Of a stretch of 64,000 nt of DNA, positions 35,798-49,459 are shown piece by piece. The notes beneath the pieces are model-generated. The model worked only from the letters and a program-made list of their open reading frames with translations. It had not been told where the DNA came from and did not search any database. The stretch is taken from positions 96,001-160,000 of the forward strand of contig CAVZRV010000030.1 of assembly GCA_963777605.1 (NCBI GenBank), read 5' to 3'. Every line of letters starts with the position of its first letter. Positions within the stretch are counted from its first letter, which is position 1. This DNA comes from an uncultured Acidobacteriota bacterium (GTDB taxonomy: Bacteria > Acidobacteriota > UBA6911 > RPQK01 > JAPXNP01). The position numbers were made by a program, and so were the translations under genes.

Positions 35798-36562
35798 GTG
35801 GCTGAAAAAGAGAGTGCGCTGGCGGTGTTTTTGGATTTTGAAAACCTGGTTCTCGGACTCGACGACAAACGGAGGGGGCAGTTTCAGATCGATCTCGTCC
35901 TCGAGCGCCTGGTCGAAAAGGGCAAGATCGTGGTCAAGAAAGCCTATTGCGACTGGAGCCGGTTCGCGGATTACAAGCAGGAGCTCCACAACGCGGCATT
36001 CGAGATCATCGACATTCCCAAGCGATCTCACACCGGGAAGAACTCGGCCGACATCCGCCTCTGCGTGGATGCCATGGATCTCTGTTACAGCAAGGAACAC
36101 ATCGACACCTTCGTGATCCTTTCCGGCGACAGTGACTTCTCCCCGCTGGTTTCAAAGCTGAAGGAAAACGGCAAGTACGTGATCGGGCTGGCAACCAAGG
36201 AAGCGGCCTCCAGTCTCCTGGTGGACAACTGCGACGAATTCACGTTCTACGAAGAACTTTCCGGCGGGGGCTCCAAGCCTCCCCAACTCTCCACCAAGAT
36301 CCCTAAAGAAAAACGGCCCGCTTTCCAACTCCTGATCGACTCCGTACTCGCACTGGGGCGGGAGGGCAAGGACGTGCTCTATTCCTCACTGGTCAAGCAG
36401 ACCATGAAGCGGAAACAGCCGGCCTTCAGCGAATCGCGTTTCGGCTTTCGGACCTTCTCCGACCTGCTCGAGTCGGCTCAGAAACTGGGTCTGATCGAAC
36501 TTCGGGAAGACGCCCGCAGCGGAACCTACGTCGTGGTCGGATTTGGGAAGTCCTCGTCCTGA
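35798..36562 (+). CDS. NYN (LabA/DUF88, PIN-fold) domain protein with OST-HTH/LOTUS domain
   Basis: VFLDFEN, KKAYCDW, GKNSADIRLCVD, SGDSDFSPLV, CDEF and C-terminal PxFSExxFGFRTFSDLL. Confidence 0.93.
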   Translation: MAEKESALAVFLDFENLVLGLDDKRRGQFQIDLVLERLVEKGKIVVKKAYCDWSRFADYKQELHNAAFEIIDIPKRSHTGKNSADIRLCVDAMDLCYSKEHIDTFVILSGDSDFSPLVSKLKENGKYVIGLATKEAASSLLVDNCDEFTFYEELSGGGSKPPQLSTKIPKEKRPAFQLLIDSVLALGREGKDVLYSSLVKQTMKRKQPAFSESRFGFRTFSDLLESAQKLGLIELREDARSGTYVVVGFGKSSS

Positions 36563-36622: not shown

Positions 36623-37798
36623 ATGAATGACAATCGCCTCAGAGTTGGAATTGTGGGAGCGTCGGGGTGGATGGCCGGTGCTCTTGCTGTTGGTGTGGAA
36701 TACGAAGGTGACTTCGACCCGGCAGCGGGCTCCGGAGTGAAGAGCGCACAATCGGTTGTCACCGGTCTGTTCGACCTGGATCGCGACAAGATGGCTCAGA
36801 GAAAGCAGGAACTGGGACTGCGGGAAGCGCAGTGTTTCGACTCCTACGAGGCTCTCCTGGCCTCGGACGAAATTGACGCGGTCGCGCTGGTGGTTCCGAA
36901 CTTCCTGCACGCGGATCTTGCCATTGAGGCTCTGGACGCCGGCAAGCACCTGTTTCTCGAGAAACCGTTCGCCACTACCAGGGAAGATTCCGTCCGGCTT
37001 GCCGAAGCCGTCCGCAGGAGCAATGTTACGACCAAGCTGGACTACATCCTGCTCCACTACGACGAACAGGAGAATCTCCATAAACTCATTCAGGACGGGG
37101 CGTTCGGTACCCTGGGATCGGTCCACTTCACTTATCGCCACCCGATCGAAGTCGGCCAGTCCGCCGGACAGTCCTGGAAGCTGTCCCGTGAAAAGTCGGG
37201 CGGAGCCCTTCCGATGGGTGTTTGCCACGCCGTTTCGATGGCTGTCTACCAGGTCGGCGCGGCTCCGGAGTGGGTGGCCTGCGTTTCCCGTCCGCCCAGG
37301 TTGAGGACGTTCGACTATGACACCCAGGTCGACCTGCTGATTTCGTTTGAAAATGGGGTCACCGGAGTCATTCAGGGAAATATCGATTTCGCCGAGAAGT
37401 ACGATGCCCGGCACACGATCATCGGGACCGGCGGGCAATTCGATTACAACCCGTACAACCCGCTGGAGAGCCGGGTCACCTGGTCGTCCAAGCCGATGGA
37501 CCGGCCCTATTCTCCCGATCCCGCGTTTGCCCGCGATCACCTTGACAGTGGCGACGTCTGGAAGCACCAGTGCGGAAGGACGATCCGCGAATTCGTGCGG
37601 CTTGCCCGGGAGGGGTCGCGGGACACCCTGCTCGGTCTTGACTCAGACGTGGTCCGGTGGTGCGAGGCGGTAATCTGGGCTGCCGAAGAATCCGCTCAAA
37701 GCGGAAGCAAGCCGGTATCAACCGCCAACTTATGCGCTGATAAAACGAGCCGGTCTCACCAGATCATGCGGTCGTCCGGAGGCACGCTGGTCAGCTGA
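36623..37798 (+). CDS. Gfo/Idh/MocA family oxidoreductase
   Basis: LRVGIVGA, DAV..VVPNFLH, AGKHLFLEKP and SGGAL motifs; start at ATG 36623. Confidence 0.88.
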   Translation: MNDNRLRVGIVGASGWMAGALAVGVEYEGDFDPAAGSGVKSAQSVVTGLFDLDRDKMAQRKQELGLREAQCFDSYEALLASDEIDAVALVVPNFLHADLAIEALDAGKHLFLEKPFATTREDSVRLAEAVRRSNVTTKLDYILLHYDEQENLHKLIQDGAFGTLGSVHFTYRHPIEVGQSAGQSWKLSREKSGGALPMGVCHAVSMAVYQVGAAPEWVACVSRPPRLRTFDYDTQVDLLISFENGVTGVIQGNIDFAEKYDARHTIIGTGGQFDYNPYNPLESRVTWSSKPMDRPYSPDPAFARDHLDSGDVWKHQCGRTIREFVRLAREGSRDTLLGLDSDVVRWCEAVIWAAEESAQSGSKPVSTANLCADKTSRSHQIMRSSGGTLVS

Positions 37799-38520
37799 AA
37801 CCCGGTGTCCGTGTATTCAAGGCGCAACGAAGTGACATTCATGTAGGTATCAGAGTTGATATAGAGCATTCCGAGAAATTCGGCTGGTAGCTGCCCTTCG
37901 AAAATCTCGTCGATGAAGTGAGCATAGTGGCCCGCTCCATCGATGGTCTTCGTTGCGACCACATTCCCGTCCACGTCGTAGAGCGTTAACTCGATCGAGT
38001 AGTTTGAAAACAACGTGGCCCAAGCGACACCGGTGTTAATTTGAGTCGACTTCTCGACCGGGACTATGAACTCCTTTTTTGCCTGTTCGTAAGCAACGCC
38101 AGTGGAATCGAGTAAGTGCCCCTGGGCGTCCGAGAAGTTATAGAAGAAGCTGAAGGCAACATCGATGTCCGTACCCTGATTGTCGCCGTCCTTCAAGGGG
38201 GTAACCTTCACATATCCAACCTTGAGGTTGTCCAGTTCTCCAAAGATCCCAATCTTGCGAGTGGATTTGGCCGGCACTCTGACATTCAACTCACTCGTGC
38301 CCCCATAGAGGACGCCGTCATAGCGCCAGCCGACGACCCACGGTTCCCGATTGGCCTGAAGGGCATAAATGTCCGCCGTCCAGTCAACGTCCTTCTTGTT
38401 ACTGATGATCAGGAAGCATTCATACCCCCCGCCGAGCGCGAGTTGAGGGAATATGGCCGCCGCCGCCGGTGCGGTCATCCCAATTACGAGAATGAGCGTT
38501 GTCAAAATTACTCGCCGCAT
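37756..38520 (-). CDS. Hypothetical exported protein with FPQxAxGGGY beta-rich modules
   Basis: Signal peptide, IFPQLALGGGY, NTGVAW, ELTLYDxDG, GHxAxFIDEIF and LTSVP; lower GC than the flanks. Confidence 0.8.
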   Translation of the reverse strand: MRRVILTTLILVIGMTAPAAAAIFPQLALGGGYECFLIISNKKDVDWTADIYALQANREPWVVGWRYDGVLYGGTSELNVRVPAKSTRKIGIFGELDNLKVGYVKVTPLKDGDNQGTDIDVAFSFFYNFSDAQGHLLDSTGVAYEQAKKEFIVPVEKSTQINTGVAWATLFSNYSIELTLYDVDGNVVATKTIDGAGHYAHFIDEIFEGQLPAEFLGMLYINSDTYMNVTSLRLEYTDTGFQLTSVPPDDRMIW

Positions 38521-38976
38521 TGCAGTGTCCTCCCCGATTAGTGTTTAGCAGGTGAACCAGACAGCCGCTTTCAAACCGCCCCTAATTGCCTGCCAGTGCA
38601 GGAGACGGGAAAGGATCGCCCGCTACGTCGAGCCTGCCCGTCCCAGAATCGTCAAAATGGGCAAGTCAGATTCTTTCATGAGTTGGCAAAAATGGAAATA
38701 TTCAGTAACGTAAAATTCCGAAATTGCGGCGCGAAGACAAGAAGCAGGACCGGGACAGCGGCGAAGAAAGTTAAACGGTCGTGACCGGCAGCGACTCGAC
38801 AGCGTCTCGTTGACCGACCCGAACCATTGAGGTGCCCGCAGAGAATGACTTCCGATTGCTATTTTCTTTCTTTGAAGGCCGTTTTTCGTCATAATAGTTT
38901 TCCGTAAAAGCCATGGATACCGCAGCGCGGCTCACCAATATTGACGCTCCCCGAAAGGTGCAGTTTCAGGTACCGG

Positions 38977-39180
38977 TTCGCCTCACCGGCGATCCTCATT
39001 CGGGCTGGGCTACGTTACCCTAGAGTCCTTTTTCCCAATCTTTTACGTCTGGGTTAAAGGGTTAGCCACTCTGGTTGATCGGGTCGGTGGCACCGGGTCA
39101 GGCGAAAAGGAGCACACGCAGACGGAAAATCAAAGAGATGTCCTCGGTGGGTTCTAAGATGATGAATCAGTTCGGGGACA
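38977..39180 (+). promoter_or_regulatory. Putative structured 5' leader RNA of the aminomutase operon
   Basis: Nested complementary segments 38977-38994/39077-39106 and 39008-39021/39058-39067, a second hairpin 39139-39146/39173-39180, and TTGACG at 38941 just upstream. Confidence 0.4.
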
Positions 39181-39209
39181 GGACCTCGGAAAGAGAAAGG
39201 AAGTAAGAA

Positions 39210-40622
39210 ATGTTTAACATTGCTGTAAGAGAAAGGAGGAACAGGCTCATCAAGTCGACGCCATCGACTGCCGGAGAGGTCGACTCTGACCATCCTCCGC
39301 CGGATCAGCTACCACAGGCTCAGACCTTTCGACCCATCGCGCAGGTCAGCACTTTCCTGTCGTGCGATTCGAGAGGCGATCAAGGCATTCAATCGACCCT
39401 GTGGTCCGACTGGCGCTGGCAACTGCGAAACCGGATTCGGACGGCCGAAGATCTGGTTTCCCGCTTTCCCCAGGTTGAAAGCGGCGGCTGTATTGCGGAG
39501 ACTTCCTCCAGGTTCCCGCTTGCGGTGACGCCCTACTATGCATCGCTGGTCAAGTCCCCCGATGCGAGTGATCCCATTTTTCAGATGGCCGTTCCGCAAC
39601 TGGCCGAACTGACAGACCGGTCCTTCCTGATCGAAGATCCTCTGGGCGAAGAACACGACATGCCTGTGCCGGGCCTGATCCACCGGTACCGGGATCGGGC
39701 GTTGCTGATCGCGACGTCGACCTGTTCGGTCTACTGCCGCCACTGCACCCGCAAGCGGGTGACTGGTTTCCGGGAAGGCGTAATCGCCCCCGACGAACTG
39801 GATCAGGCGGTTCAATATTTGCGGAGCCACCCGGAGATCCGTGACGTAATCGTTTCGGGCGGCGATCCCCTGACCCTGGCGACGGAAACCCTGGAACGGA
39901 TCCTCTCGCGCCTGCGCGAAGTCGAATCAATCGATATTCTCAGAATCGGGACCCGAGTTCCGGTCGTGCTTCCCATGCGGATCACCGCGGAACTGGTGCA
40001 GATGCTCGGCCGCTATCACCCCCTGTACGTCAATACTCATTTCAATCATCCCGTCGAATTGACGCCGGAGGCGTTGGAGGCCTGCCGGATGATGGCGGAT
40101 GCTGGAATTCCGCTCGGGAACCAGACGGTGCTGCTTCGGGGCGTTAACGATTCTCCACAAACGCTGGAAACTCTTTTCAGGGGGTTGCTGCGAAATCGCG
40201 TTCGCCCCTACTACCTGTTCCAGTGTGACCTGGTGCGGGGCGTCGAGCACTTCAGGACTCCCCTCTCCCGGGGGATCGAAATCATGGAGTACCTGCGGGG
40301 CCGGGTGAGCGGGATGGCGATTCCGACCTTTGTCGTGGACGCGCCCAACGGTGGAGGAAAAATCCCCCTCCTGCCCAATTACCTCGTGAGCATGAGTCCG
40401 ACCCACACTGTCCTGCGGAATTTCGAGGGTATGTTCGTCTCCTATCCGGAGCCGGCTTCTGAAGGCTCGTCATGGTACGCCGCCGAATCAGTTAATCCCG
40501 GTACCGGAGGAGTCTGGGACGTCTCGACCGGTCGGTTGACCCACATTCAGCCCAGAGTGTCGGAGCGGTCGTTGCGACGGCGACATCACCGCCACCGGCG
40601 CAAGTTGGAGCGACCGTCTTGA
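39210..40622 (+). CDS. kamA: Lysine 2,3-aminomutase (KamA-type radical SAM/PLP enzyme)
   Basis: WSDWRWQLRNRI, TPYY, DPLGEE, HRYRDR, CSVYCRHCTRKR, SGGDPL, NTHFNHP, NQTVLLRGVND, YYLFQCD and FVVDAPNGGGK. Confidence 0.92.
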   Translation: MFNIAVRERRNRLIKSTPSTAGEVDSDHPPPDQLPQAQTFRPIAQVSTFLSCDSRGDQGIQSTLWSDWRWQLRNRIRTAEDLVSRFPQVESGGCIAETSSRFPLAVTPYYASLVKSPDASDPIFQMAVPQLAELTDRSFLIEDPLGEEHDMPVPGLIHRYRDRALLIATSTCSVYCRHCTRKRVTGFREGVIAPDELDQAVQYLRSHPEIRDVIVSGGDPLTLATETLERILSRLREVESIDILRIGTRVPVVLPMRITAELVQMLGRYHPLYVNTHFNHPVELTPEALEACRMMADAGIPLGNQTVLLRGVNDSPQTLETLFRGLLRNRVRPYYLFQCDLVRGVEHFRTPLSRGIEIMEYLRGRVSGMAIPTFVVDAPNGGGKIPLLPNYLVSMSPTHTVLRNFEGMFVSYPEPASEGSSWYAAESVNPGTGGVWDVSTGRLTHIQPRVSERSLRRRHHRHRRKLERPS

Positions 40623-42400
40623 TTCGGATTCACCGGGTCTACAGTACCGCTCTGCCCATCGATCAACACCGGATCGAACAGATCCAGGAGATCTTTCGCC
40701 AGAGCTTTCCGGAGGTGGCCGAGTCGTCGGCCACCATCCCTGACAAGATCGCCCACCCTTTCGCGTACGGTTATCTCAGCGTCGCCTTGGTGAGCGAGGC
40801 GGCAACGGGTCGAGTCAGCGGTTTTTCTCTCTTCAATCACTTCCCCGATATCAACGCAGCGCTGCTGGATTTCATTGCTGTTCAACGCGGCCACAGAGGC
40901 GGCGGCATCGGCGGTGCTCTCTATGAGGCAACCCGGGAGTATTTGATCTCGATGAAGTCTCGGGGACTCTATTTCGAGGCATTACCCGACGATCCCATTC
41001 TGGTGGCCGACGCCGTCGAATTGCGGGAGAATCGGAAACGACTGTCCTTCTATGAAGGATACGGAGTCTTCCCGGTCATCGAGACGGACTACGAGACCCC
41101 CATCGACGAATCCCCTGCACCCTTTCTGCTCTTCGATCCGTTGGGAAGACAATCGCCTCTCGGAAGAAGCGAAGCACGGTCCGCCGTCCGGGAGATCCTG
41201 GAGCGAAAGTACGGCCACCTGGTTGATGCCGCCTACATTGACAAGGTCGTCAGGTCATTCAGGCACGACCCGGTGCGGTTCAGACAACCCCGCTACATAC
41301 GGAACAGCGACACCGTGAGCGCTAAACAGCCTCCGCATGGCCGGCTCGAGCGCCCATTCGTGGTTGTTTCCAGCACGCGCCACCAGATCCACCATGTTCG
41401 TGAACGGGGCTACGTCGAACGACCGGCGAGGGTCAATGCGATCCTGGACGCCGTGTCCACCCTGGACTTGTTCGAAACTCTCCCTCCGCGCCATTTTGGT
41501 GAGGAAAGAATTCGCAAGGTTCACAACTCCGGCCTGGTTTCCTATCTGCGAGAGGTCTGCCGGACGTTCACGGACAGTCGCCCCGTGTACCCTTACGTTT
41601 TCCCGATCCGCCGACCGGAACGAAAGCCCAGGGACCTGGCCGTCCGCGCCGGGTACTACTGCATCGACACGTTCACGCCGCTCGATCGAAATGCCTACGT
41701 TGCGGCGCGGGAGGCCGTCGATGTGGCTCTGACAGCCGCGGAGATACTCGTGCGCCGGGGGCCCCGCATGGCCTACGGCGTCTGCCGGCCCCCTGGCCAC
41801 CACTCTGAAGCCAAGTCGTTCGGAGGATTCTGCTATTTCAACAACGCGGCCATTGCAAGCCAGTATCTGAGTACCTTTGCCCGGGTCGCCCTGCTCGACA
41901 TCGACTTTCATCACGGCAATGGTTCTCAGGACATCTTTTATCAGCGGAGCGACGTCCTGACCGTCTCGATCCACGGCCACCCCAACTACGCCTATCCTTA
42001 CTTCTCCGGTTTCGCGGACGAAAACGGGGAGGGGCCCGGGAAAGGCTATAATTTCAATTATCCTCTTCCCGAGAACACCGCGGCCGATGTTTATCTGGAT
42101 ACGCTCAGCCGGGCGCTCAAGAGAATCCGAGATTACGATCCCGGCTTCCTCGTTGTGTCTCTGGGCTTCGACACGATGAAGGGCGATCCAACCGGAGCTT
42201 TCCTGCTGACATCGGATACGCTCAAGCAGATGGGACAGGCAGTTTCGGCCCTCAACCGGCCGACGCTGGTCCTTCAGGAGGGAGGCTACAGCCTTCGCAA
42301 TCTACGTCGGGGAGCCCTCGGATTCTTTTCAGGTTTTGCCAAGCCCCTCTTCTCCGGGGACACGGGTTCCCGTACTGAGAAGAAGACTCGGACCTCATGA
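40619..42400 (+). CDS. GNAT-fold domain fused to a class II HDAC/acetylpolyamine amidohydrolase-like deacetylase
   Basis: N-terminal LLDFIAV...RGGGIGGALYE...FYEGYG; C-terminal ERPARV, RPPGHH, GFCYFNNAA, LDIDFHHGNG, SLGFD and QEGGY; TTGA overlap with kamA. Confidence 0.9.
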   Translation: MIRIHRVYSTALPIDQHRIEQIQEIFRQSFPEVAESSATIPDKIAHPFAYGYLSVALVSEAATGRVSGFSLFNHFPDINAALLDFIAVQRGHRGGGIGGALYEATREYLISMKSRGLYFEALPDDPILVADAVELRENRKRLSFYEGYGVFPVIETDYETPIDESPAPFLLFDPLGRQSPLGRSEARSAVREILERKYGHLVDAAYIDKVVRSFRHDPVRFRQPRYIRNSDTVSAKQPPHGRLERPFVVVSSTRHQIHHVRERGYVERPARVNAILDAVSTLDLFETLPPRHFGEERIRKVHNSGLVSYLREVCRTFTDSRPVYPYVFPIRRPERKPRDLAVRAGYYCIDTFTPLDRNAYVAAREAVDVALTAAEILVRRGPRMAYGVCRPPGHHSEAKSFGGFCYFNNAAIASQYLSTFARVALLDIDFHHGNGSQDIFYQRSDVLTVSIHGHPNYAYPYFSGFADENGEGPGKGYNFNYPLPENTAADVYLDTLSRALKRIRDYDPGFLVVSLGFDTMKGDPTGAFLLTSDTLKQMGQAVSALNRPTLVLQEGGYSLRNLRRGALGFFSGFAKPLFSGDTGSRTEKKTRTS

Positions 42401-42425
42401 TTTCTGTCCTCGAGGAGGAAGCACT

Positions 42426-43424
42426 TTGTTGATCGGTCTGGTTTACGATTTGATTGATGATTACCTTGCCGACGGCTTTTCAGCCGAGGAGGCAGCCGAA
42501 TTCGATTCGCTCTCGACGATCGAAGGCCTGGAAGCAGCCTTGCGCTCGAACGGCCACGACGTGGAGCGCGTCGGCAGCGGTCGTCGCCTTTGCGGCCAAC
42601 TCGCTGCCGGCAGGCGGTGGGACCTGGTGTTCAACATTGCCGAGGGGATCAGCGGGCGCAGCCGTGAGGCGCAGGTCCCGGGTCTGCTGGACCTGTTCAA
42701 CCTTCCCTACACCTTTTCCGACGCGCTGGTCTGTGCGGTGACCCTCGACAAGGGAATGGCCAAGCGGATTGTTCGTGACGCCGGCCTGGCGACGCCGGCC
42801 TTTGCCGTTGTCAGCTCGCCCGCGGACGTTGACAAGGTTGACCTCCGGTATCCCGTTTTCGCCAAGCCGCTTTGCGAGGGTACGAGCAAGGGCATCGACG
42901 GTCGTTCCCGGGTGCCCCACCGTGAAGCCCTCGAGGAGCGCTGCACACACCTCCTCGACCGGCACAGGCAACCCGTACTCGTCGAGGAGTACCTTCCCGG
43001 AAGGGAGTTTACCGCCGGTATCATCGGTTCCGATTCCCAGTCCCGGGTGATCGGGATCATGGAGATCTCGATCCGGCAGAGTTCGCCGGTGGCCGACTAC
43101 TCCTACCAGGTGAAATGCGACTGGGAGCGTTTGGTCACGTACGAGCCTCTGCCAAACGGCGAACTCCGGGAGCAAATCGAGAGGCTGGCTTTGGGAGCCT
43201 ACCGGGTGCTGGGCTGCCGCGATGCCGGCCGTGTCGATATTCGGCTCGATGACAGGGGAAAGGCTTCTTTTATCGAGATCAATCCGCTTCCAGGTCTCAA
43301 TCCCGTCTACTCCGATCTGCCGATCCTGGCCGCTCAGCAGGGCTGGTCCTATCTTGAGCTGATCGGTGCGATCGTGGCTAGCGCCCGGGAACGAATCAGC
43401 GAAAAAGCCGGGGCCGCAACATGA
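42426..43424 (+). CDS. D-Ala-D-Ala ligase-like ATP-grasp enzyme (non-canonical)
   Basis: VFNIAEG, LDKGMAK, YPVFAKPxxEGTSKGI, LVEEYLPGREFT, GRVDIR and EINPLPG; TTG start after GAGGAGG. Confidence 0.88.
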   Translation: MLIGLVYDLIDDYLADGFSAEEAAEFDSLSTIEGLEAALRSNGHDVERVGSGRRLCGQLAAGRRWDLVFNIAEGISGRSREAQVPGLLDLFNLPYTFSDALVCAVTLDKGMAKRIVRDAGLATPAFAVVSSPADVDKVDLRYPVFAKPLCEGTSKGIDGRSRVPHREALEERCTHLLDRHRQPVLVEEYLPGREFTAGIIGSDSQSRVIGIMEISIRQSSPVADYSYQVKCDWERLVTYEPLPNGELREQIERLALGAYRVLGCRDAGRVDIRLDDRGKASFIEINPLPGLNPVYSDLPILAAQQGWSYLELIGAIVASARERISEKAGAAT

Positions 43425-44953
43425 GACCGACCGTTCTGGTCCTTTTCAACACCCCTGGCAAGGGGGACGATCCGGGTGGCTGCTCGTACCGGGAATCCGA
43501 GGGGGGCGTCGCAGCGGAGGTCGCCGCCGTGGAAGCGGCGCTGCGGCAGTTGGAGATCCCGTTCCGTTCGGCCGGGGTCCACAGCGTTCGTGACCTCGAC
43601 GGCCTGTTCACGGTGGGTCGAGAACCGGTTGTGGTCAACCTGGTCGAGGCCCTGGATGGGCTGGATGAGTACGCCTGTCTGGTTCCCGACATCTGCCGCA
43701 GTTACGGCTGTACGGTCACCGGGAATTCAACTCGCTGCCTTGCACTGACGCTGGACAAGGCCGTCACAAAGTCGGTCCTGAGAGCATCCGGGATTCCCAC
43801 CCCCTGGTGGGTCCAGGTTTCGGTCGGAGAGGAGGTTCCCCGGATCCCACCCGAGTACTTTCCTCTGATCGTCAAGCCTTCCCGGTCCGATGCCAGTGAA
43901 GGGATCGATGCCCATTCAGTCATCGGACAGCCCGGTCCCGAACTTGCCGGCCTGGTGGATCGACTCCACCGGACAAGCGGCGAACCGGTGCTGGTCGAGC
44001 GCTACCTGGAGGGGCGCGAGTTCAACGTGGCTCTTCTCGAGGAGGCCGGGTCGGTTCGCGTTCTTCCGCCCGCGGAGATCCTTTTCAAAGGTTACCCGGC
44101 GGGTAAGCCGAGGATTGTCGATTACGCTGCAAAATGGTTGGAAGAAAGTTTCGAATACCGCAACACCGAGAGGCAGATTCCGGCGCAGATTTCCGATTCG
44201 GAGTTCCAGCAGATTCGGGACCTGGCACTGCGGAGTTGGACAGCGTGTGGATGTCGCGATTACGCCCGCGTCGACTTTCGGATGGAGGCGGACGGCCGTT
44301 GCTCGCTCCTCGAAGTCAATGCCAATCCTGACGTTGCGCCGGACGCCGGTTTTTCCGCCGCGCTGGACGCGGGGAGAATAGGATACCCAAAATTCGTCGC
44401 AACCATCGTGGACAATGCCCGCTCTCGTCATTTCGAGACCGTCCATTTGTCGGAGCAGCCTTCCGACGGTCCAGCCGGTCCGGAAGGTCGCGAGGGGATC
44501 TTCCGGACTGCTGCCGCGGAGGTCGGCCCCATCGTAGCGATGGTCGCTGAAACCGGGTTCTTTCGTCCCGATGAAGTCGAAATTGCGGCGGAAGTTCTCG
44601 AAAGTGCCGTTCACCGCGGGGACTATGAATCCTACACCTTCCGGGTTGAGGGAGCCGCGGTCGGCTGGGTCTGCTACGGAGCCACGCCGTGCACGATGGG
44701 TACGTACGATGTTTACTGGCTGGCGGTCTCTCCCGGACTCCAGGGACGGGGGATCGGTCATCGGTTGATGGACTTCGCCGAAGCGCGGATCCGCGAGGCG
44801 GGAGGCCGGATCGCCGTAGTGGAGACCGCAGGAAGACCGGATTACGAGCCGACAAGGAAGTTCTACGAACGGATCGGTTACCTTCTCGAGCATCAGATCA
44901 TCGATTTCTATGCTCCCGGAGACGACAAGATGATTTACTGCAAGAGATTCTAA
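43421..44953 (+). CDS. Ddl-like ATP-grasp enzyme fused to a C-terminal GNAT acetyltransferase
   Basis: NLVEA, LDKAVTK, PLIVKPxxxDASEGI, LVERYLEGREFNV, YARVDFR and EVNANP; then YWLAVxPxxQGRGIG and TRKFYERIGY; ATGA overlap. Confidence 0.9.
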   Translation: MRPTVLVLFNTPGKGDDPGGCSYRESEGGVAAEVAAVEAALRQLEIPFRSAGVHSVRDLDGLFTVGREPVVVNLVEALDGLDEYACLVPDICRSYGCTVTGNSTRCLALTLDKAVTKSVLRASGIPTPWWVQVSVGEEVPRIPPEYFPLIVKPSRSDASEGIDAHSVIGQPGPELAGLVDRLHRTSGEPVLVERYLEGREFNVALLEEAGSVRVLPPAEILFKGYPAGKPRIVDYAAKWLEESFEYRNTERQIPAQISDSEFQQIRDLALRSWTACGCRDYARVDFRMEADGRCSLLEVNANPDVAPDAGFSAALDAGRIGYPKFVATIVDNARSRHFETVHLSEQPSDGPAGPEGREGIFRTAAAEVGPIVAMVAETGFFRPDEVEIAAEVLESAVHRGDYESYTFRVEGAAVGWVCYGATPCTMGTYDVYWLAVSPGLQGRGIGHRLMDFAEARIREAGGRIAVVETAGRPDYEPTRKFYERIGYLLEHQIIDFYAPGDDKMIYCKRF

Positions 44954-45025: not shown

Positions 45026-45754
45026 ATGCGAAGGATAACTCTACTTCTGGCAGCAACGATCACCTGCTGCATTCTCGCTGGCCGTGTCGGGGCTGTGGAA
45101 GTGCCTCAGTTTCGTGATCTGTTCAACGGGAAGGACCTGAGCGGGTGGGTCAACGTCAACACCGACCCCGATACCTGGTCGGTTCGCGACGGCATGATCA
45201 TCTGCAAGGGGCAACCCATTGGTGTCATGCGGAGTGAACGGCAGTACGAGAATTTCATTCTTCACATTGAGTGGATGCATATGGAGCCCGGAGGGAACTC
45301 GGGCGTCTTCGTCTGGAGCAATGCCGCCCCTCCGGAAGGCCAGAGGCTGCCCAACGGAGTAGAGGTCCAAATGTTGGAGCTGGAGTGGCCCTTCATCAAT
45401 AAGGACCGCAACGGTCAGCCCCGTCCCCTCGCTTACGTGCATGGAGAACTGTTTGGAGTGGGGGGCGTCGTGACGACGCCGGACAATCCTCGCGGCCGGC
45501 GGAGCAAGTCGATTGAGAATCGCTGCTTGCCCAAGGGTGAGTGGAATACCTACGATGTTGTCTGCGTTGACGGAGTGATCAAACTTGCCGTAAACGGAAA
45601 GTTCGTCAACGGCATCAGTCATTCCACTCAGAGAAAAGGGTATCTCTGCCTGGAGTCGGAAGGGGCCGAGATTCATTTCAGGAACATCAAGATCCTGGAA
45701 CTCCCGCCGGGAGTCCTGACCCCGGACCAGATTGCCCCGGTGATCAACCGGTAG
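45026..45754 (+). CDS. DUF1080 / 3-keto-disaccharide hydrolase family exported protein
   Basis: [10 protein letters not shown], YENFxLxxEW, GNSGVF, EVQ, GEWN and [13 protein letters not shown]. Confidence 0.9.
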
Positions 45755-45966: not shown

Positions 45967-47226
45967 ATGGCGAAAACTAACTTGCGCTGGATAGGCGTTA
46001 CGATTGCGGTCGGCTTTCTTCTTCTGGGCGAAGCTGTTGGCCAGAACGAGGACGTAACGGGGCAACCGGGTTCGAGGTCACTGACGGGTTACAACCGCAG
46101 GCGCTCGGCTACCGCCCATATCCCGCTTATCAACCTGGTCGGACGAGTCCTCATGGATACCGGGGAGGCGCCCAGCGAAATCGTCCAGGTCGAACTGGTC
46201 TGTAACGGTCGGGTCAGATCCCAAACCCCGACGGGGGCAGACGGCAGCTTCAGCTTTGATCTTGGCGGGCCCCGGAACGACGACATGCTGGATCCGTCGG
46301 TTGGTGGAAGCTACGACGGAAGCCTGCGATCGATTGGAAATCTGTCTCGACCCGGCCCGGGACAGGTGTTTGGGAGCACATCAGGATCCTCGCCAGACCG
46401 CGTCATCCTGGGGGGCTGTGAAATCCGGGCTGCCCCAAAACCGGGCTTTGCGTCGGAGACCATTAATCTCAGGGCTCGCGACACCATCGACAATCCCGAC
46501 GTCGGCGTTCTCATTCTGAGGCGACTCTCCAACGCGGACGCGACCACCGTGAGTCTTAACACTTTGGCTGCTCCCAAGAAGGCCCACGACGCGTTTGAAG
46601 CCGCGCAAAAGGCAATCGCCCAGAAGAAGCCTGATTTGAAGAAGGCGACCAAGCTGTTGAAGCGCGCCGTCGATGCCTATCCACGCTTTTCAGCCGCATG
46701 GGAGCTGCTCGCCCGGGTCCAGTTGTCGCAGGATAAGACTGCCGACGCGGTCAGCTCGCTTCAGAAGGCGGTTGAGGCCGAGCCCGGCTTTATCTCCCCG
46801 TACCTCGTCCTGGCGCAGATCTCGATTCAAAAGAGTGACTGGGCGAGCACAGCGGAGTGGACTAGCAAGGTTCTTTCCTTTGACAAGGAAAACGCAACCT
46901 CACTTTACTGGAATGGCCTCTCCCACTATTACCTCGCCCGGTTCGACCGGGCCGAGCCGATCCTTGCGGGACTCTACCGGAAGGGCCGGGAACTGGAAGA
47001 GGAGTACCCGTTCGGGCTCTTGCCGCTCGGTGTGATGCACGCCAACCAGGGAAGAATTCGGGAGGCCGCCCGGGAATTCAGGAGTTATCTCCAGTTCATG
47101 CCCGAGGCTCGGGTCTCCGTGGAACAGCGCGGCCAACTCCTCAGCCAGATCGCCACGTGGGAACGGGCGGGATTGATCGAGGAAAAGGCTGACGACTCTA
47201 CGATCGCCCGCAAGACACCCGAATAG
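45967..47226 (+). CDS. Exported TPR protein with N-terminal beta-sandwich domain
   Basis: Signal peptide, GRVLMDxG, LxC, GxFSF, L.APKKA and several TPR helices. Confidence 0.82.
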   Translation: MAKTNLRWIGVTIAVGFLLLGEAVGQNEDVTGQPGSRSLTGYNRRRSATAHIPLINLVGRVLMDTGEAPSEIVQVELVCNGRVRSQTPTGADGSFSFDLGGPRNDDMLDPSVGGSYDGSLRSIGNLSRPGPGQVFGSTSGSSPDRVILGGCEIRAAPKPGFASETINLRARDTIDNPDVGVLILRRLSNADATTVSLNTLAAPKKAHDAFEAAQKAIAQKKPDLKKATKLLKRAVDAYPRFSAAWELLARVQLSQDKTADAVSSLQKAVEAEPGFISPYLVLAQISIQKSDWASTAEWTSKVLSFDKENATSLYWNGLSHYYLARFDRAEPILAGLYRKGRELEEEYPFGLLPLGVMHANQGRIREAAREFRSYLQFMPEARVSVEQRGQLLSQIATWERAGLIEEKADDSTIARKTPE

Positions 47227-47229
47227 CGG

Positions 47230-49242
47230 TCAGTCCGGTCTCTTTTCATCGGGGTGATTTCGAAAGAGCGAGGGGGGGGCAGGTTTCTTTTCGGTCTTGT
47301 CCAGGTTTGAGGCGCTCTGGGTCAGTGCATCCTGCACCTTGCGTCGTTCTTCCAGGGTCAGGGTCTGCAGGTCGTGGTCATTGAATCCCAGCCGCTTCCC
47401 GACCTCCGCCAGCCTCTTTTGACCGATTTCCCCCAGGTCCCCACCCAGTGCCGCCGTCCGAGCGAACCAGCTGAGTGCTTCTTTGGCCTTACCCGCTCTC
47501 AGGAGGGCCTCCCCGAGCCGAAATGAAGCGTACTGGTGATGAGGCGCATACTCGATTGCCTGTTCGAGTCGGTGAATGGACTGGTTCAAGAGTTGGCGGG
47601 CGGCTTCTCCCTGGGCCTCAACTGCCCGGCCGAGGTAGACACGCCCCAACGCATAGCAGGCGTCGCTGGAGACCTGATCCCGTCGCATGGTCCAGTCGGA
47701 TTCCGCTTCACCAGTTCGTCTTCCGATCTTGTCGGCCGCGTTCAACGTCTCTAGAGCTCTTTGTTCGGCCTCGGTCACGCGTCCGGATTCGGAATAGACC
47801 AGGGCCAGGTACCCGGACAGCTCAGGAAAGACCGGGATCGCCTCGAGGACTTTTTCACTCTGGGCCACGAAATTGGGGACATCGTTGTTCCGCCGGTAGA
47901 TGCTGGCGAGTATGTAGTGAGCATAGGGTGCCATGCCACCGTCCGGGAACTCCTTGAGGAAGGCTTCAGATGCGGATTTCTGGTTCTCGATTCCCTCGGC
48001 TTTTTCAACTGCCTCCCAGGCGCGGGATTCCTGGGGCGAAGAAGGGCGACCCACGACCCGAGCGGCCTTGTCAGGTGCGGGTCCAACAGGTTCACCCCTT
48101 CGGTCAGTGCGAACCGGGCCGTCGGCAGGAGGCGTTTCGACGATCGCCTCTGTTGGCTTGTCGGCAGGGGGGGAATCCTTTCGGTTGTTCAACCGGTCCA
48201 GTCGAAGTCGCGCGAGGTCGGAAAAGATGCCTGAGGGAAACCGTTTCAAGAAGAGCCGGAAGTCTTCGGAATGAGCACTGTTCTCGATCGATTTCCAGAA
48301 AGTGATCTCGGCCGTCTCGGAAATGTCGGGACTCGGTTTTGCCGGTTTGACGACTGGGTCGGGGGACAGGTCCCGGCCGGGGACCATGAAAATGAACTCA
48401 CCTTCACCGCTCCGGCCGAGTTGGGGATTTTGCCGGGCCTGCCAGTTGGAAAGCGCCGTTTGGGCCACGCCGGGTTCGATATAGGCATAAAGTTCGCTCG
48501 AGGTCAGAATGCCGTCTCCGTTCGAATCCCCATTGCCTTCCAGGGCCTCGACGAAGAAATAGGTGAACAGCCCCTGTCCGCGCCACTCGTGGGCCTCCTG
48601 GTCGGCCCGCCCGGCCGTCAGGGCGAGGCGCACCTTCTTCTGGGTAACCTGCCGAAGATAGTCCTCAAGCGTTGTGGGCAGTCCCACGCTGCGGGTCGAC
48701 AGCGCCAGTCCCGAGTAGCAGGCATCGGCGACGAACATGACGTGCTTGCTCGGATAAAGAGCGAAGATTCGCTGGAGTTCGCTCATGGCGATTCCGGTCG
48801 CCATCCGACGTTCGTTGTCCCCTTCTACCGGCATCAGGTAACCCATCGCCGCGTCTCCTTCGCCCACCGTCACGCCGTGGCCGGCGAAATAGATCAGGAC
48901 CCGATCGCCATATTTCAGCACTGGAATGAGCCGGTCCCCAAGTTCGGTCGTAATCCGGGTTCGGGTGGCATCACGGTTCAGGAGCAGGCGGACGTCGAAC
49001 TTGTGCTGCTTCTCCAGAACCTCCGCCACGTGCCTGGCATCGGGAACGGCCCCGGGAAGATCGGGGAGGCTCTGGTAATCTGAAATACCGATCACTACAG
49101 CGTAGGATCGGTTGTAGACGCGGGATTCACCCCCCGGCCCGATCAAATCGTTGGACGACGCCTTGTAGATGAGCGAACCCAGGTCCTGGGCCTGCACGGG
49201 AATCCCCATGCCGAGGAAAAGAATAAGAATCAATCGTGTCAT
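47230..49242 (-). CDS. Exported caspase-family (peptidase C14) protein with C-terminal TPRs
   Basis: Signal peptide, YAVVIGISDY, YFAGHG and DACYSG His/Cys dyad, GLFTYFF and TPR repeats; start likely 49242. Confidence 0.9.
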   Translation of the reverse strand: MTRLILILFLGMGIPVQAQDLGSLIYKASSNDLIGPGGESRVYNRSYAVVIGISDYQSLPDLPGAVPDARHVAEVLEKQHKFDVRLLLNRDATRTRITTELGDRLIPVLKYGDRVLIYFAGHGVTVGEGDAAMGYLMPVEGDNERRMATGIAMSELQRIFALYPSKHVMFVADACYSGLALSTRSVGLPTTLEDYLRQVTQKKVRLALTAGRADQEAHEWRGQGLFTYFFVEALEGNGDSNGDGILTSSELYAYIEPGVAQTALSNWQARQNPQLGRSGEGEFIFMVPGRDLSPDPVVKPAKPSPDISETAEITFWKSIENSAHSEDFRLFLKRFPSGIFSDLARLRLDRLNNRKDSPPADKPTEAIVETPPADGPVRTDRRGEPVGPAPDKAARVVGRPSSPQESRAWEAVEKAEGIENQKSASEAFLKEFPDGGMAPYAHYILASIYRRNNDVPNFVAQSEKVLEAIPVFPELSGYLALVYSESGRVTEAEQRALETLNAADKIGRRTGEAESDWTMRRDQVSSDACYALGRVYLGRAVEAQGEAARQLLNQSIHRLEQAIEYAPHHQYASFRLGEALLRAGKAKEALSWFARTAALGGDLGEIGQKRLAEVGKRLGFNDHDLQTLTLEERRKVQDALTQSASNLDKTEKKPAPPSLFRNHPDEKRPD

Positions 49243-49459
49243 CCCAACGACTCTCATCAGGATCGCTACGCGACGCCGCTGGAAATCAGATTCCTCATGC
49301 GTCGCGCCGATGGCCCAAAGCTGAACAAGTGGAAACCACCCAAGCAAGCGGGCGAGAAATTAAAGTTAGTGTACCGCGAGCACAGGGAAACCCGCAAGCA
49401 GTTCATTCACAGTGGGATTCCGAGCATTCCCCGACTGGCCTATACTAAACTGCAAAGCC

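Follow-up and report, generated by a model that had tools for sequence, protein, structure and literature searches.

What does a bacterium make with a lysine aminomutase, two ligases, two acetyltransferases and a deacetylase that are encoded together in a row of four genes? The question is raised by positions 39210-44953 of a 64,000-nucleotide stretch of DNA from an uncultured Acidobacteriota bacterium (GenBank assembly GCA_963777605.1, contig CAVZRV010000030.1, positions 96,001 to 160,000 of the forward strand), which is referred to here as the window and whose numbering is used throughout. The four genes lie on the same strand and encode a KamA-type lysine 2,3-aminomutase, a fusion of an acetyltransferase domain of the GNAT family with a deacetylase domain of the HDAC fold (GNAT-HDAC), an ATP-grasp ligase resembling the D-alanine–D-alanine ligase Ddl (AG1), and a fusion of a second such ligase with a second GNAT domain (AG2-GNAT2). 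The answer that we consider rather likely is that these genes form a self-contained cassette for a small, probably intracellular, N-acetylated beta-lysine compound, either an amide or a short peptide. A search of the full-text literature returned no description of the gene set, with the limit that one phrase search may miss text printed with commas; this agrees with an earlier note on this DNA, which knew of no biochemical characterisation and had considered that the product might already be described. The parts of the cassette are as follows.

39210..40622, + strand: predicted KamA-type lysine 2,3-aminomutase, 470 amino acids (aa) (Pfam LAM_C and Radical_SAM)
40619..41323, + strand: GNAT1 domain, residues 1-235 of a 593-aa fusion protein (Pfam Acetyltransf_1, weak, E 1.5e-4)
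41354..42400, + strand: predicted deacetylase domain of the HDAC fold and the acetylpolyamine amidohydrolase (ApaH) type, residues ~246-593 of the same fusion (Pfam Hist_deacetyl, E 2.5e-71)
42426..43424, + strand: AG1, Ddl-like ATP-grasp ligase, 332 aa (Pfam Dala_Dala_lig_C, E 1.8e-28)
43421..44455, + strand: AG2, second Ddl-like ATP-grasp domain, residues 1-345 of a 510-aa fusion protein (Pfam Dala_Dala_lig_C, E 8e-25)
44480..44953, + strand: GNAT2 domain, residues ~354-510, fused to AG2 (Pfam Acetyltransf_1, E 1.9e-11)

All six catalytic domains claimed by the earlier note were recovered by Pfam across the four genes, the weak match of GNAT1 being supported by its predicted fold, and the coordinates of the open reading frames (ORFs) agree with the tight coupling that it had described. 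The TTG start codon of GNAT-HDAC at 40619 overlaps the KamA stop codon as TTGA, the ATG start of AG2-GNAT2 at 43421 overlaps the AG1 stop as ATGA, and AG1 most likely starts at TTG 42426, which is preceded by GGAGGA and lies 25 nt past the stop at 42400; the ORF listing gives AG1 a longer frame, from 42336. The N-termini read from TTG 40619 and TTG 42426 agree with the family consensus sequences MIRIxRVY of GNAT-HDAC and MxIGLTYDL of AG1, respectively.

A conserved core and its accessory fusion

The genes were traced in other bacteria by a pattern scan with AG2-GNAT2 as the bait, taking one genome per species; 80 loci were kept, the six domains were located in them by tblastn, and fusions were called by a frame-and-stop test. 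Homologues of AG2-GNAT2 numbered 1084 proteins at E ≤ 0.001 among the 7995 candidates scored, and at least 597 pattern matches in species-representative genomes encode a relative (597 of 599 among the matches listed). Among the matches listed, the phyla include Acidobacteriota, Planctomycetota, Verrucomicrobiota/Lentisphaerae, Bacteroidota/Ignavibacteria, Chloroflexota, Desulfobacterota, Myxococcota, Gemmatimonadota and Proteobacteria, besides others. Of the 80 loci, 62 contain KamA, 67 contain AG1 and 79 contain a GNAT; in the 42 well-flanked loci, where the bait has 4 kb or more on either side, the counts are 38 for KamA and 37 for AG1. KamA opens the set in 48 of the 80 loci and closes it in 14. 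The order KamA-AG1-AG2-GNAT2 is found in 37 loci (AG2 and GNAT2 fused in 26, separate in 11) and the order AG1-AG2-GNAT2-KamA in 14 (fused in 2, separate in 12), while over all 80 loci AG2 and GNAT2 form one gene in 46 and two adjacent genes in 33. Further fusions were seen among the best 120 longer relatives of AG1, which comprise 22 AG1~AG2 proteins, one AG1~AG2~GNAT2, one KamA~AG1 and 96 double ATP-grasp proteins. Co-occurrence of the cassette genes is thus far beyond chance, and a core of the aminomutase, the two ligases and a GNAT is conserved across many phyla; the co-occurrence elsewhere on which the earlier note had staked its reading was borne out, in several gene orders and with alternative fusions.

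The 96 double ATP-grasp proteins (~680 aa; the sources that are named are Myxococcota and Bdellovibrionales) carry tandem domains that are both nearer to AG1 than to AG2, and may represent a separate, though related, family of double ligases.

The closest counterpart of the complete five-part arrangement, with 50-65% identity per domain, belongs to an Acidobacteriota metagenome-assembled genome that a genome search assigns to the same family as the genome studied here. Within the phylum the cassette is patchy, being found in 42 of 151 genomes, a sample of mutually related genomes that includes one unpublished genome. A whole-protein search of the phylum matched 122 of 301 genomes, which is not a count of cassettes because such a search also catches canonical Ddl. 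No recurring transporter or further enzyme was found beside the cassette in two sets of 80 loci; the sole recurring neighbour is a TetR regulator (8 of 80 and 11 of 80 loci), and this window contains no TetR gene.

Of the 80 genome loci, 12 contain the GNAT-HDAC fusion. In a reciprocal search of metagenome contigs with this fusion as the bait, a relative was encoded by 563 of the 598 matches. From these, 80 loci were kept; at least one cassette gene lies beside the fusion in 56 of them, and in 16 of the 22 that have at least 5 kb on both sides. Its position varies: between KamA and AG1, as in this window, in 11 complete loci, after GNAT2 in 14, between AG2 and GNAT2 in 6, and divergent from the cassette in at least 7. 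Its two parts were fused in 90 cases and separate in 2, and on one contig a single ORF of 750 aa joins GNAT1~HDAC~GNAT2 (L148 40-2292). Because of this reciprocal linkage, the varied positions and the nearly constant fusion, the GNAT-deacetylase module is functionally part of the cassette, though accessory. The earlier note had presented it as a member of the operon; its linkage to the cassette is upheld, and constant membership is not, since only 7 of the 42 well-flanked genome loci contain it. Two representatives from the GNAT1 profile search, of 738 and 762 aa, may be the same triple fusion.

Predicted active sites

The aminomutase, which carries an N-terminal extension of ~60 aa and a basic C-terminal tail, aligns with the clostridial lysine 2,3-aminomutase (PDB 2A5H) at E 1.1e-133. 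In its motifs YYLFQCD and FVVDAPNGGGK lie the aligned counterparts of D293, D330 and K337 of 2A5H, of which we take K337 to be the lysine that binds pyridoxal phosphate (PLP) and the two aspartates to be the residues that bind the epsilon-amino group of the substrate. The CxxxCxxC motif of radical S-adenosylmethionine (SAM) enzymes reads CSVYCRHC, and the three cluster cysteines and R134 of 2A5H are likewise matched residue for residue. Among the 110 aminomutases that adjoin cassette genes in the fetched loci, the equivalents of D293, D330 and K337 occur in all 110, and those of the three cysteines and R134 in 108, the other two lying outside the alignment cover; the retention of the lysine-binding aspartates and the PLP lysine, which the earlier note had read from this single protein, therefore extends to its relatives. 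Judged from its sequence, KamA lacks none of the residues by which lysine, PLP and the Fe-S cluster are bound in the clostridial enzyme, so that beta-lysine would be its expected product. Among NCBIfam models, that of the AblA equivalog scores it best (491.9 bits, cut-off 525.4), the subfamily model of the KamA family gives 307.2 bits (above its cut-off of 199.2), and the glutamate and arginine aminomutase models remain far below their cut-offs. A second, divergent radical SAM gene of the KamA family lies outside the window beside a small GTPase gene (C31:338226-339278; locus L086 1342-2766); it scores 236 bits on the family model and far below all specific aminomutase models.

The closest solved relatives of both ligases are Ddl and VanA. 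On the Ddl models, whose cut-offs are 243 and 245.65 bits, AG1 scores 166.1 and 129.4-129.6 bits and AG2 scores 107.1 and 98.6-99.6 bits; AG1 is below every Ddl/Van cut-off in NCBIfam, in contrast to the canonical Ddl of the same genome, which is encoded on another contig and scores 329.9 bits. Alignments of 16 AG2 sequences (A1) and 28 AG1 sequences (A4) were compared with Escherichia coli DdlB (PDB 1IOV) and the genome's own Ddl. AG2 keeps K97, K144, E180, E187, K215, R255, D257, E270 and N272 of DdlB, with Y216 replaced by W239 and G276 by D304, and the nine ATP, Mg and catalytic positions of Ddl are invariant in both families. The D-Ala site, which we take to consist of GGxSxE, HGxxGEDG, Tyr216 and Ser281/Leu282, is replaced: HGxxGEDG corresponds to EGxxGxSREAQ in AG1 and to NLVExxxG in AG2, and the C-terminal loop reads NPLPGxxPxxSD in AG1 and NxNPDxxPDxG (NPD(V/I)xPDxG) in AG2. 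At the position of GGxSxE, AG1 reads DGFSAE, of which only the acidic residue is kept across the AG1 family. Thus, the earlier note was right that the ATP and metal residues are kept, and right on the loss of GGxSxE and HGxxGEDG except for this acidic residue in AG1. Residues that are invariant specifically in AG1 include E73, E81, E151 and D297, and those specific to AG2 include E76, D157, E160 and D304; to judge from the alignment, these acidic residues would suit a substrate with two amino groups.

In a quick tree of 19 canonical Ddl of related genomes with the 28 AG1 and 16 AG2 sequences (the locus of one unpublished genome omitted), Ddl stands apart from AG1 and AG2 with a support of 100 in the Shimodaira-Hasegawa-like approximate likelihood ratio test (SH-aLRT), and the AG2 clade has 99; these values come from a narrow Ddl sample with long branches and an incomplete careful search. 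Because of the sub-cut-off scores, the separate clade and the canonical Ddl elsewhere, AG1 and AG2 are predicted not to be housekeeping Ddl, contrary to the case that the earlier note had named as fatal to its reading, namely that the ligases simply make D-Ala-D-Ala. For the putative heterodimer that the earlier note had raised, a predicted complex of AG1 with the ATP-grasp domain of AG2 scored 0.18, against a mark of 0.32 and without controls, and informs on binding neither way.

The deacetylase domain is closest, among solved chains, to acetylpolyamine amidohydrolases (9GKZ, E 4.4e-75; 6PHR, 6.5e-75; 3Q9B, 3e-66), behind which HDAC6 and HdaH-type enzymes rank. The Zn ligands and catalytic residues are kept, and RPPGHH, DxDxHHGNG, the Asp of GxD, EGGY and the Zn ligands are invariant in 16 fusion proteins. 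According to text excerpts of the study that describes it, 9GKZ is PsApaH, a member of cluster 4; no other bacterial cluster was found to act on acetylputrescine and acetylcadaverine, acetylspermine too was deacetylated by cluster-4 enzymes only, and RPPGHH and EGGY are motifs given for these enzymes (PMC11532494). The alignment to 9GKZ passes the region of L2, the loop linked to polyamine specificity, nearly gap-free. With an assumed numbering offset of 11 relative to the excerpted descriptions, the equivalent of R95, partner of D163 in a dimer salt bridge, is kept, D163 is replaced by Lys/Arg, PIS by PTG, and E106/H106 by Ala, and on the strength of these replacements the domain would represent a distinct subfamily. 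The text of the same paper, as far as it was available, makes no mention of GNAT-fused forms or of an aminomutase context, and its supplements may list GNAT-fused deacylases (PMC11532494). Overall, the enzyme is predicted to be a deacetylase of the small-molecule (acetylpolyamine) type. A second, stand-alone gene of the HDAC family is present in the genome at C27:519356-520216.

GNAT1 is predicted to have a real GNAT fold, since its AlphaFold2 model (mean predicted local distance difference test score, pLDDT, 89.7) matches GCN5 and other GNATs in Foldseek; these matches are generic GNATs and include no specific relative of known function. The acetyl-CoA loops are kept in the sequences of both GNAT1 and GNAT2: in GNAT1, G96 and G98 are invariant in 39 sequences, and R93 and G94 are nearly invariant in an alignment of 16 (A2). 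A GNAT1 profile matched 166 representative proteins at E ≤ 1e-30 among 1.84 billion, and its full-length matches of ~575-600 aa have the length of the fusion. GNAT2 matches an uncharacterised GNAT (PDB 2R7H, DDE_3044) at E 7.7e-31.

The proposed product and its alternatives

In the pathway that we propose, KamA would turn L-lysine into beta-lysine, and AG1 and AG2 would each form one amide bond via an acyl phosphate; at least one of the substrates would be beta-lysine, and a further beta-lysine, another amino acid or an amine are possible partners. GNAT2 would cap one amino group with acetate. The ApaH domain of the accessory fusion may hydrolyse an N-acetyl group on an aminoalkyl chain of the same compound, and GNAT1 may restore this acetyl group or place one on another nitrogen; in this way the product could be turned over, switched in its charge, or protected and deprotected. 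The product would stay in the cell because no exporter recurs beside the cassette. In beta-lysine, N3 and N6 are separated by four carbons, and an N6-acetyl-beta-lysyl group may be regarded as acetylputrescine with a carboxymethyl branch, having the same acetylated 1,4-diamine skeleton; an ApaH-type enzyme would fit the pathway because of this resemblance. As to the physiological role, a compatible solute and a polyamine-like cation are the two likeliest.

Several observations weigh against this proposal. KamA falls just below the AblA equivalog cut-off, and beside AG2-GNAT2, KamA is missing from 4 and AG1 from 5 of the 42 well-flanked loci. Similarly, cassette genes are missing from the vicinity of GNAT-HDAC in 6 of its 22 well-flanked loci, the fusion of a GNAT to a deacetylase has no obvious chemical logic, and, on the assumed numbering, the PTG, Ala and Lys/Arg replacements separate this domain from the characterised polyamine deacetylases. 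The acceptor substrates of AG1 and AG2 are guesses. Finally, a test of the product as a polyamine substitute gave no clear signal, SAM decarboxylase being found in 11 of 42 cassette-positive versus 37 of 109 cassette-negative genomes of the phylum sample described above. The genome studied here (completeness 96.7%) encodes the arginine decarboxylase SpeA (717 bits); no SAM decarboxylase was found in it, and SpeE and NspC are below their cut-offs.

The earlier note had listed an amino acid, a polyamine, the cell wall or a protein as possible acceptors; an acetylpolyamine-type deacetylase makes a small molecule likelier and the last two less likely. It is improbable that the ligases act on a protein (EF-P, that is elongation factor P, or a ribosomal protein) by attaching beta-lysine or a short beta-lysyl chain in a RimK-like manner, with the GNATs and the deacetylase writing and erasing acetyl groups. 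Such a role would agree with the best named NCBIfam match of GNAT2, which is RimI (35 bits, below the cut-off of 86), with the TTL and RimK families in precomputed Pfam lists of some homologues, and with the activity of PsApaH on one peptide substrate, as given in the excerpted text (PMC11532494). EpmA (GenX) was also looked for in the genome, and the best match to its model (262 bits, cut-off 286.9) is the housekeeping LysS, which scores 653 bits on lysS_bact; therefore, the single EF-P encoded there has no known beta-lysyl ligase. However, no candidate gene for a substrate protein recurs beside the cassette in 160 loci, the ligases are Ddl-like rather than RimK-like, the deacetylase is closest to the polyamine-specific cluster, and the patchy distribution in the phylum is unlike that of a core modification of a translation factor. 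Even less probable is a cell-wall role, in which the ligases would produce a D-Ala-D-X terminus of another kind or attach beta-lysine to precursors of peptidoglycan, and which we regard as extremely unlikely: the kinship with Ddl and VanA that would favour it is offset by scores far below the cut-offs of all Ddl/Van models, by the canonical Ddl elsewhere, by the replaced D-Ala site residues and separate clade, and by the lack of any mur or van gene adjacent in the window or recurring in related loci.

Two further alternatives keep a small molecule as the product. A secreted, antibiotic-like beta-lysine compound, comparable to streptothricin or negamycin, would use acetylation and deacetylation for self-protection and activation. 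Acetylation followed by deacetylation is a known prodrug logic, and GNAT1 matches OrfE bound to glycylthricin, weakly in sequence (E 0.022) and at rank 36 by fold. Genes for beta-lysine formation and an ATP-grasp enzyme also co-localise in the negamycin cluster, according to the excerpted preprint (bioRxiv 10.1101/2025.05.27.656397). We nevertheless hold this reading to be quite improbable, since no exporter, resistance gene or tailoring enzyme recurs, and the same minimal gene set is spread over many phyla, which is unusual for antibiotic clusters. The other alternative is that the end product is the known osmolyte N-epsilon-acetyl-beta-lysine, made by KamA and one GNAT as in AblA/AblB, and that the ligases serve another purpose. 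AblA is indeed the best NCBIfam model for KamA, and the near-constant GNAT would fit, but the genome has no match to the model of the AblB-type GNAT (TIGR03827), including in GNAT1 and GNAT2, and by their sequences both ligases are catalytically intact, and their linkage to KamA is as tight as that of the GNAT. The existence of AG2~GNAT2, AG1~AG2 and KamA~AG1 fusions adds to the case against this alternative, which is accordingly very unlikely. These genome searches bear out the earlier statement that the AblAB and EpmAB contexts are absent.

The intracellular acetylated beta-lysine amide or peptide is thus preferred. A bolder version of it, which we find doubtful, is that short acetyl-capped beta-lysine amides constitute a widespread new class of metabolites, acting like polyamines with a carboxyl group in view of the 1,4-diamine that beta-lysine shares with putrescine, with GNAT1-ApaH as a reversible acetyl switch between a cationic and a neutral form; if true, this would be a polyamine-style homeostasis system for a new molecule. 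Relatives occur in at least 597 species-representative genomes of many phyla, and to know the product, be it a new compatible solute or a polyamine-like compound, would close an evident gap in the small-molecule metabolism of bacteria. It would also assign functions to two large families that now bear the annotations "D-alanine--D-alanine ligase" and "histone deacetylase family protein", and provide the first physiological substrate for a GNAT-ApaH fusion. New in the present analysis are the reciprocal linkage of the accessory fusion, the polyamine-deacetylase assignment, the census of fusions and the comparison of the two ligase active sites.

Surroundings of the cassette and known systems

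The genes that flank the cassette in the window are unrelated to it and do not recur beside it in other loci; the next gene downstream, at 45026, encodes a protein of the 3-keto-disaccharide hydrolase family. Upstream lies one further feature.

38893..39209, + strand: upstream intergenic region, presumed promoter and leader, 317 nt

No sigma-70-like promoter site was found in this region, no leader RNA was matched in Rfam at E ≤ 1, a blastn-short comparison with the upstream regions of 105 related loci returned no similarity, and comparison with the two closest loci gave no clear conservation. Directly upstream, two ORFs on the opposite strand, 37756-38520 (-, 254 aa) and 38623-38892 (-, 89 aa), have no Pfam match and are putative genes. 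Elsewhere in the window, a 705-aa caspase-like protein (Peptidase_C14) that bears TPR repeats at its C-terminus (47230-49347, -) adjoins a 419-aa TPR protein (45967-47226, +), and a 254-aa protein (35798-36562, +) has an NYN nuclease domain and matches OST-HTH/LOTUS weakly.

Among known systems, AblA/AblB of methanogens and some bacteria likewise combines a KamA-type aminomutase with a GNAT, and acetylated beta-lysine is the likely common theme. The cassette differs in that it contains no AblB-type GNAT and adds two ATP-grasp ligases, an ApaH-type deacetylase and a second GNAT; the two added ligases would imply at least one amide bond beyond acetylation, unlike in AblA/AblB. The joining of a GNAT to an ATP-grasp ligase in one polypeptide is shared with Ngg, the N-acetylglutaminylglutamine synthetase of the NAGGN osmolyte pathway, in which these two activities make an N-acetylated dipeptide. 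In a protein-language search an Ngg cluster appears at 0.90, no more than a lead; the ATP-grasp of Ngg is of the RimK type (PF08443 on the listed cluster), whereas the cassette has two ligases of the Ddl type and beta-lysine as the building block. AG1 and AG2 have the same fold as Ddl and VanA and keep each of their ATP, Mg and catalytic residues, and they differ in their sub-cut-off scores, the replaced D-Ala motifs and the separate clade.

In the negamycin cluster, a beta-lysine unit derived from an aminomutase is similarly joined by an ATP-grasp enzyme; however, as described in the excerpted text, this actinomycete cluster also has hydroxylase, methyltransferase and hydrazine-forming genes, none of which is in the cassette (bioRxiv 10.1101/2025.05.27.656397). 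The accessory deacetylase most resembles the cluster-4 ApaH enzymes (PsApaH, 9GKZ; M. ramosa ApaH, 3Q9B; PA1409), with which it shares a near gap-free alignment and the RPPGHH and EGGY motifs. By contrast, judged against the excerpted descriptions of those enzymes, the cassette enzyme has a GNAT fused in place of the L1 loop at the N-terminus, and it is linked to beta-lysine genes rather than to polyamine catabolism.

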